Shown here piece by piece: positions 3,015-3,270 of a DNA stretch of 64,000 nucleotides. Location: the IMG/VR virus record IMGVR_UViG_3300033066_001917, positions 1 to 64,000 of that record; one strand, written 5' to 3'. Position 1 is the first letter of the stretch; every line of letters begins with the position of its first letter. A program made the translations under genes and the position numbers. The stretch comes from a virus (taxonomy: Duplodnaviria; Caudoviricetes). The notes under the pieces were generated by a model. It was given only the letters and a program-made list of their open reading frames with translations. It was not told the DNA's origin and did not search any database.

Positions 3015-3270
3015 GGTAGCGAGGGAAGAAAAAGGAACGCCCGCAGTTCCTCGCTAATCTCCACCAACCTGCGGGCTCGTTGGTGGCCTTGAAATAAACG
3101 ATGACCTGAGGAAAGGTCCGGTGCCGGTATCCCCCACACCGAGGGGGCGGCGGCTTTTCATGCCGCCCGAGTAGGTTACCCCACTGAACTCAGGTTGATT
3201 TATCAGATCGGAGGAAGTTTCATTGGATCCTTCCGAGCTGTGTTGTGATAGGAGAAGTGGTATTGGATCG
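3015..3270 (-). ncRNA. highly structured leader or ncRNA with T-loop hairpin, pseudoknots and alternative terminator
   Basis: Multiple perfect stems (ACCTGAG/CTCAGGT, GGCGGC-ATGAAAA-GCCGCC, CCACCAAC/GTTGGTGG, TAGCGAGG/CCTCGCTA); CGATAT promoter motif at about 3275. Confidence 0.6.

Follow-up and report, generated by a model that had tools for sequence, protein, structure and literature searches.

A folded, non-coding RNA element of about 155 nt (window 3186-3039, minus strand) lies ahead of two small genes in the tRNA array of a phage, and its fold, an assembly of three hairpins and two H-type pseudoknots, has been kept by selection in two phage lineages. The window is the stretch of 64,000 nucleotides that we analysed, i.e. 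the start of an IMG/VR virus record that is 200 kb long and whose completeness is estimated at 38%; this length at such a completeness points to a very large phage. The runs that bear the record are metagenomes from wastewater, river and activated sludge. The element is a candidate RNA motif outside the described families, of a familiar general kind and present in two rare lineages. As for its role, we tentatively favor a statically folded leader that would be the RNA partner, or operator, of the LeuRS-CTD-like protein of 53 amino acids (aa) encoded next to it; that this protein binds the RNA, and that the binding has any regulatory effect, is what we infer.

The fold and its conservation in a second lineage

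A preliminary description of the sequence had pointed to a structured RNA upstream of the 53-aa gene, between 3015 and 3270. The element is indeed found within this range, although the part from 3200 to 3270 is not conserved (41% identity with the related lineage) and does not belong to it. All the motifs listed in that description were found, every one on the minus strand, and the structured RNA is genuine: it is non-coding, and its helices are kept with compensatory changes in the related lineage. The fold consists of seven helices (P2, P3, P4, PK1, P5, D and PK2) amounting to 45 pairs (Table 1), among which P5, a short hairpin, was added after the comparison of the two lineages. It is organized as a module A, formed by the three hairpins and an H-type pseudoknot, and a module B, formed by a second H-type pseudoknot or a kissing pair.

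Table 1. Features of the element and of its surroundings in the window (identities are those between the window and lineage L002).
Feature	Position	Strand	Description
P2 hairpin	3169..3186	-	6 bp (7 bp in L002), GUAA tetraloop; in the MFE of both lineages
P3 hairpin ("UGAAA" loop)	3149..3167	-	6 bp, G+C-rich, 7-nt purine-rich loop
PK1 H-type pseudoknot	3119..3147	-	stem 1 3147-3143/3135-3131 (5 bp), stem 2 3141-3136/3124-3119 (6 bp)
P5 hairpin	3103..3118	-	5 bp, 6-nt loop of variable sequence
A/U-rich linker	3087..3102	-	single-stranded, conserved, joins modules A and B
PK2	3039..3086	-	hairpin D 3086-3079/3068-3061 (8 bp); loop 3076-3069 pairs with 3046-3039 (8 bp)
P1 closing helix	3195-3189 with 3110-3104	-	7 bp, -9.6 kcal/mol (window)
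Stem E, terminator-like	3051-3046 with 3038-3033; U run 3032-3026	-	loop is the PK2 3' strand
8-bp "competing" stem	3056-3049 with 3025-3018	-	17 nt upstream of the start codon
Module A			83% identity
Module B			74% identity (80% by BLAST)
53-aa ORF	2840..3001	-	directly downstream of the element
144-aa ORF	2394..2828	-	second gene of the cassette
Two ORFs			63-65% identity
Spacers			57-61% identity
Sequence 5' of the element	3201-3340		41% identity (unrelated)
HNH endonuclease gene	3341..4057	+	PHROG HNH match 1.8e-51; abuts the 5' edge of the element

Taken alone, the window displays a folding signal mildly beyond chance. On the minus strand, the 155-nt element folds with a z-score of -2.1 and a stretch of 337 nt with one of -2.6; the plus strand, with -1.0 and -1.2, does no better than shuffles. 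Besides, a pseudoknot with two 8-bp stems is expected about 0.7 times per random genome of 200 kb. The reality of the element is established by the related lineage, L002, and not by folding of the window. This lineage was reached through the 144-aa protein, which has one close homologue (63% identity), borne by eight fetched contigs (18 on record). These eight contigs are identical across the leader and a ninth, L017, is identical in the element, so that the comparison is one of two independent full sequences, the window lineage and L002. The gene order is the same in L002, i.e. tRNA-Leu, element, 51-aa ORF, 145-aa ORF and tRNA-Glu, and the element is 74-83% identical to that of the window vs 57-65% for the flanking genes and spacers.

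In a structure-guided alignment of the two sequences, the 45 pairs undergo 13 substitutions and none of the pairs is lost: three changes are two-sided and compensatory, six are wobble-compatible, and one pair is gained. For the 39 pairs of the six helices defined from the window, none of the 11 substitutions is disruptive; a random placement would break six to seven pairs; it would spare them all with a probability of 1e-5 to 3e-4, according to the transition bias. When the partners are shifted by 1-3 columns, the pairing falls to 36-53%, vs 95-98% in register. Read on the plus strand, six of the pairs, which are G-U, would become A-C mismatches, and this fixes the RNA strand as the minus one. 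At a closer distance, a DNA strain 95-99% similar to the window has no differences over 3035-3200, vs about 2% elsewhere.

Relative to L002, P2, which the preliminary description had not listed, undergoes one compensatory change (A-U to G-C) and two wobble-compatible ones, and the stem of P3 is kept with one G-C to G-U change. The loop of P3 had been described as a UGAAA T-loop; the hairpin is present, but the first base of the motif (base 2 of the loop) differs, with a U in the window vs a G in L002, so that a reading as T-loop, U-turn or anticodon loop is not conserved. P4 is a C5/G5 hairpin (3147-3131) whose loop, 3141-3136, is complementary to 3124-3119. This pairing of the P4 loop with a downstream sequence, already pointed out in the preliminary description, forms PK1 and is kept in L002: the two stems pair at 100% in each lineage, and stem 2 has one wobble-compatible change, U-G to U-A. 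The loops of PK1 are 1, 0 and 6 nt long, the latter (3130-3125) crossing stem 1. The stem of P5 is kept in both lineages while its loop sequence differs; a U-A to U-G change in it is found in L002 and also in a third variant, carried by an RNA-library contig (3107 T>C, plus strand). P5 uses the same 3' strand as P1, the helix that had been proposed to close a multibranch core. P1 is present in the window but has no counterpart in L002, and its 5' strand sits at the edge of the replacement by the HNH cassette.

The linker is identical at 15 of 15 aligned bases, with one indel. It has no conserved pairing partner, and its MFE registers differ between the two lineages. A helix between the linker and the connecting loop of PK2, predicted in the MFE, was rejected: it takes different registers in each lineage and two of its five pairs are lost at the aligned columns.

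The complementarity reported between 3069-3076 and 3039-3046 proved perfect, and it constitutes the second stem of PK2. Each stem of PK2 displays one two-sided compensatory change (A-U to C-G in hairpin D, C-G to U-A in the loop pairing); there is also one wobble change, and the stems are 100% paired in both lineages. The duplex energy of the loop pairing is -15.9 and -13.8 kcal/mol. The loops are 2-3, 0 and 14-16 nt long, the connecting loop of the window being 14 nt (3060-3047). In PK1 as in PK2 a loop pairs with a downstream sequence, the loops have lengths that can span the stems—by a rule-of-thumb judgement of pseudoknot geometry—and the stems are supported, which are the features of H-type pseudoknots. 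The fold ends about 30 nt (29-31 nt) before the start codon, leaving the ribosome site outside; this interval is 61% identical between the lineages.

Genomic setting, cassette proteins and relatives of the element

The element lies inside a minus-strand array of tRNA genes and other folded RNAs (ARAGORN, Rfam). tRNA-Phe and tRNA-Leu are upstream of it, tRNA-Glu and two tRNA-Ile downstream, the five being found by both ARAGORN and RF00005. The HNH gene, encoded on the strand opposite to tRNA-Leu, shares 22 nt with the 3' end of the latter; free-standing, it occupies the place of a 69-aa ORF in the other lineage (L002:5376-5640). Its location between tRNA-Leu and the conserved RNA is typical of a homing-endonuclease cassette beside highly conserved RNA-coding DNA. 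A perfect 12-bp hairpin (3274-3309) stands between the element and the HNH start codon; it is followed by no U run on either strand, is absent in L002, and may be part of the HNH cassette.

Other features of the region deserve mention. A 16-nt tandem duplication (2837-2853), just past the stop of the 53-aa ORF, was found in other strains, from the DNA runs X2 and X3 and from an RNA-library contig, and makes a longer spacer ahead of the 144-aa gene. At about 2348-2393 a mosaic boundary separates the two lineages: the identity is 86-97% on its downstream side, for tRNA-Glu, a tRNA-like RNA (2272-2111), the spacers and the two tRNA-Ile, but only 57-65% for the genes on its upstream side. Within the RNA array, the 93-aa ORF at 1765-2046 (minus strand) is missing from L002 (a gap of 276 nt in the alignment); either the window has gained it or L002 has lost it. 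The ORF-poor stretch of 207 nt from this ORF to tRNA-Ile (1558-1764, minus strand), 96% identical between the lineages, is a candidate for a further structured RNA. At 4399-4460 (minus strand) we found a 62-nt tRNA-like RNA without anticodon arm, syntenic in L002, with a sub-threshold match to the tRNA-Sec model (33.4 bits, E 3e-4). Further away in the window are a ThyX gene (37639-39492, plus strand) with a LAGLIDADG-type insert, likely an intein, a complete tmRNA (39905-40278, plus strand) and a T4 Rnl1-like RNA ligase (58228-59442, minus strand); together they make up an RNA-repair and translation toolkit that fits a huge phage.

The 53-aa protein is 51% identical to its homologue of L002, the only one found, and its ORF shows an excess of third-position substitutions. 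Its AlphaFold model (pLDDT 82) has a beta-beta-alpha-beta-beta arrangement. The top 15 structural matches of this model are C-terminal domains of bacterial LeuRS (Z 5.9-7.1, rmsd 1.7-2.4, 47-52 residues; the best of them Z 6.2-7.1 over 51-52 residues), and lower-ranked matches are ubiquitin-like folds (Z 5.2-5.7) and GB1 (Z 5.1); the likeness is moderate (Z about 7), and a Z below 8 can reflect a common arrangement. By contrast, a profile search against PDB sequences (E up to 10) gave weak ubiquitin-like matches and no LeuRS, and the search of Pfam just a sub-threshold match to SAMP2. The label "LeuRS-CTD-like", proposed at first for this gene, receives a modest support at the level of the fold (that of LeuRS residues ~800-860), but none from sequence searches. 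In tRNA-Leu, the LeuRS C-terminal domain contacts the long variable arm as well as the tertiary base pairs (PMC3561953). The 144-aa protein has at least 55 distant homologues, which are diverged proteins of phages and metagenomes. Its AlphaFold model (pLDDT 97) is mostly helical with a small terminal sheet; it has no fold match in the PDB, and the protein belongs to no Pfam or PHROG family. The RNA element and the 53-aa gene co-occur in both lineages, and neither is found in the eight other genomic contexts fetched for the 144-aa family.

The search of known RNA families called for in the preliminary description was carried out. Rfam 15 gave no match at gathering thresholds and, at E up to 10 with windows of 251-2100 nt of both lineages, noise alone (10-19 bits) and no family. 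In particular RF00230, the T-box riboswitch, does not match at this threshold in either lineage, and neither do the riboswitches associated with ThiS/MoaD-type proteins (TPP, Moco), which the beta-grasp-like protein had brought to mind. ARAGORN and RF00005 do not call the element as a tRNA; neither its acceptor-like helix nor the base equivalent to U33 is shared by the two lineages. BLAST and two covariance models revealed no paralogue in the 200-kb record, where the element is single copy; one 17-bit match of a covariance model was dismissed, being within a 334-aa ORF and on the strand opposite to the local tRNAs. Scans by pattern, run on contigs of viruses and metagenomes and on prokaryote genomes, gave no further homologue, protein searches brought no further lineage, a scan for the flank of the third variant gave no match, and no close relatives of the phage were found in IMG/VR.

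Partial copies are nevertheless found in wastewater. Contigs of RNA libraries (two metatranscriptome runs) carry near-identical copies of 3035-3157 and 3035-3092, followed by unrelated sequence, i.e. module B, or modules A and B, on unrelated flanks; these contigs inform neither on transcription nor on RNA ends or strand, and could derive from DNA carry-over. The breaks lie right after stem E (3035) and, in one case, also inside the linker (3092): contig X19, of a wastewater RNA library, matches the element from 3092 onward only, which places a module boundary within the linker. From these sequences modules A and B look like portable units, and the breaks suggest that they are separable from the downstream gene.

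Possible roles of the element

We rank first the leader that would act with the 53-aa protein; a stand-alone RNA comes close behind, then a passive cap, an attenuator, and finally the lack of RNA function or a coding sequence. According to the first reading, to which we give a little less than an even chance, the element would be the untranslated leader of a two-gene cassette (53-aa LeuRS-CTD-like and 144-aa proteins) within the array and would serve as the RNA partner of the adjacent 53-aa protein. The corners made by the pseudoknot and the loop-loop pairing would present tRNA-elbow-like surfaces, and the protein, once bound, would affect in return how well the cassette mRNA is translated or how stable it is, in the manner of autoregulatory pseudoknot leaders. 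The position as a leader, the co-occurrence of the RNA with the 53-aa gene, the RNA-binding-like fold of the protein and the analogy with pseudoknot leaders of the T4 gene 32 type argue for this reading. Against it, the exposure of the start site does not depend on PK2 in the window, and the 29-31-nt interval before the start codon is poorly conserved. The portable modules with contig breaks after stem E also fit a self-contained RNA better than a gene-specific leader.

Such a self-contained RNA, or two RNAs corresponding to modules A and B, might be cut from the transcript of the tRNA array like the neighboring tRNAs and tRNA-like RNAs, and act in trans, e.g. by mimicking tRNA or by serving as a decoy or scaffold; an RNP with the 53-aa protein might then be formed. 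This is possible, with a lower probability than the leader. The element does sit in a minus-strand array of tRNAs and folded RNAs, the similarity of contigs ends at the 3' side of stem E (3035) or begins in the linker (3092), a hairpin and a U run are present on the 3' side in the window, and the A/U-rich single-stranded linker between two stable folds is reminiscent of a processing site of the RNase E type. However, the 3' hairpin with its U run is not kept in L002, a scan of the window and L002 found no promoter-like site, and RNA ends cannot be revealed by contigs. Moreover the element, with 74-83% identity, is less conserved than the neighboring tRNA-like RNAs (93-97%), although the latter belong to a different mosaic block.

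More ambitious, and unlikely in our opinion, is a so far undescribed phage RNA-protein module made of the RNA and the free-standing LeuRS-CTD-like protein, in which the RNA would imitate or sense tRNA and tie the expression or protection of the tRNA array to the tRNA pool. The pseudoknot corners would here mimic the tRNA elbow. The conserved GAA of the P3 loop matches the anticodon of tRNA-Glu(UUC), whose gene follows the cassette in both lineages.

The element could also be, with a low probability, a passive 5' protective or processing element, capping the cassette mRNA after excision of the upstream tRNAs and shielding it from 5'-end-dependent RNases without any sensing. A static and highly stable fold without conserved alternative pairing would suit this role, as would the location downstream of tRNA genes in one transcription direction and the boundaries of portable modules. 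But the conservation of loops and linker exceeds what the structure needs (the connecting loop of PK1 is identical, as are the 15 aligned bases of the linker), and the nearest upstream tRNA lies about 840 nt away from the element in the window, on the far side of the antisense HNH sequence.

The preliminary description had proposed yet another model, which we now consider very unlikely: an attenuator or riboswitch in which the loop pairing of PK2 would be exclusive of a terminator hairpin and of a stem next to the ribosome-binding site (RBS), controlling the genes and tRNAs downstream. In the window the elements of this model are present. A 6-7-bp hairpin followed by a U run has the 3' strand of PK2 as its loop; like intrinsic terminators, the stretch 3052-3026 has the simple pattern of a paired stem (7 pairs, 3 of them G-C) and a U run, and was called by a terminator scan. 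The 8-bp stem can form upstream of the start codon. However, unlike intrinsic terminators, stem E is weak (-7.1 kcal/mol) and its loop is engaged in a covarying long-range pairing; in L002 it loses two of five pairs, drops to 0 kcal/mol and is not called by the scan, and over the two lineages it is 80% paired. In the third variant, the likeness to the element ends at 3035, without a U run beyond that point. In L002 the 8-bp stem is absent from the aligned positions, and a different pairing, of 6 bp, covers the start codon. Blocking the strands of PK2 raises the predicted exposure of the start codon in L002 from 0.04 to 0.24, which would favor a coupling, but in the window the predicted RBS exposure is 0.74 with PK2 vs 0.75 without. 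The folds announced as mutually exclusive might in fact coexist, since a kissing complex would sterically accommodate both the loop-loop pairing and the small hairpin. As seen above, Rfam gives no riboswitch and no T-box. In terms of riboswitches in general, the element has a conserved sensor fold; a conserved, mutually exclusive expression platform is not found. The fold is static, and no alternative pairing is conserved. As terminator, P1 and competing stem are confined to the window lineage, and the RBS exposure is uncoupled from PK2 in the window, the attenuator model is not supported.

The least probable view, very unlikely in our opinion, is that there is no RNA function, the sequence being a coding N-terminal extension of the 53-aa protein or kept by chance or hitch-hiking: in both lineages no stop codon interrupts the frame of the 53-aa ORF across the leader, and some gene calls lengthen the ORF to 75-87 aa, but substitutions in the leader are spread over codon positions (12/8/9, vs 16/10/32 and 45/35/73 in the two ORFs), this lack of codon periodicity indicating a non-coding stretch; seven codons are put out of frame by a +1/-1 indel pair although their nucleotides remain conserved, no upstream start codon or ribosome site is conserved, and all stem substitutions keep pairing. 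The translation of the leader, used as a protein query, gave nothing new. A -1 frameshift site formed by the linker and PK2 at a 5-nt spacing was also rejected on inspection, since the linker does not have the form of an X XXY YYZ heptamer and the indel alters the frame between the lineages.

Significance and comparison with known systems

Huge phages carry large tRNA arrays, within which the RNAs other than tRNAs are almost unexplored. The element is a compact RNA with two pseudoknots, supported by compensatory evidence unusually clean for two sequences, and is paired with a tiny protein resembling the tRNA-binding domain of a synthetase. If the RNA and the 53-aa protein bind each other, the phage would re-use a module of aminoacyl-tRNA synthetases to control or escort an RNA; if they do not, the element would still add a new candidate motif to the many folded RNAs of phage tRNA clusters that lack an explanation. 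For now its general impact is limited by its rarity, with two lineages sampled in wastewater and rivers.

The likeness to tRNA is that of the window lineage: its stems (7, 6, 6 and 5 bp) and its two 7-nt loops are reminiscent of a cloverleaf, and the location is a tRNA array. Unlike tRNA, the element has a 20-nt insert between its "T arm" and "acceptor" and no signatures of D-loop or T-loop; the acceptor-like helix is absent in L002, where the base equivalent to U33 is G. Consecutive H-type pseudoknots, for their part, recall tmRNA and the upstream pseudoknot domains of the 3' ends of plant viruses.

With T-box leaders (RF00230) the element shares a long, multi-domain and pseudoknotted leader placed before a gene related to aminoacyl-tRNA synthetases, in a tRNA-rich context, and also, in the window, a hairpin and a U run that follow. 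It differs from them by having neither Stem I specifier loop nor K-turn, and by a terminator that is not conserved. The T-box sequence is UGGGUGGUACCGCG (PMC3315439). The connecting loop of PK2 resembles it loosely, but the resemblance is not common to both lineages, and the UGG that would pair with the 3' end of a tRNA is found in L002 and is absent in the window.

Autoregulatory pseudoknot leaders are among the closest systems, and include in E. coli those of rpsO (S15) and of the alpha operon (S4). The element differs from these leaders, as from that of T4 gene 32, by having two pseudoknots and three hairpins and by a fold that ends about 30 nt ahead of the start codon, excluding the ribosome site; there is no sequence similarity with any of them. 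In such leaders the fold is recognised by the product of their own gene, which for the element is a prediction. A pseudoknot leader bound by the product of the downstream gene is a known phage theme, exemplified by T4 gene 32 (PMC10690425), and the element shares with the autoregulatory leaders a static fold with an H-type pseudoknot, placed in the 5' untranslated region of a gene whose small product is a putative nucleic-acid-binding protein.
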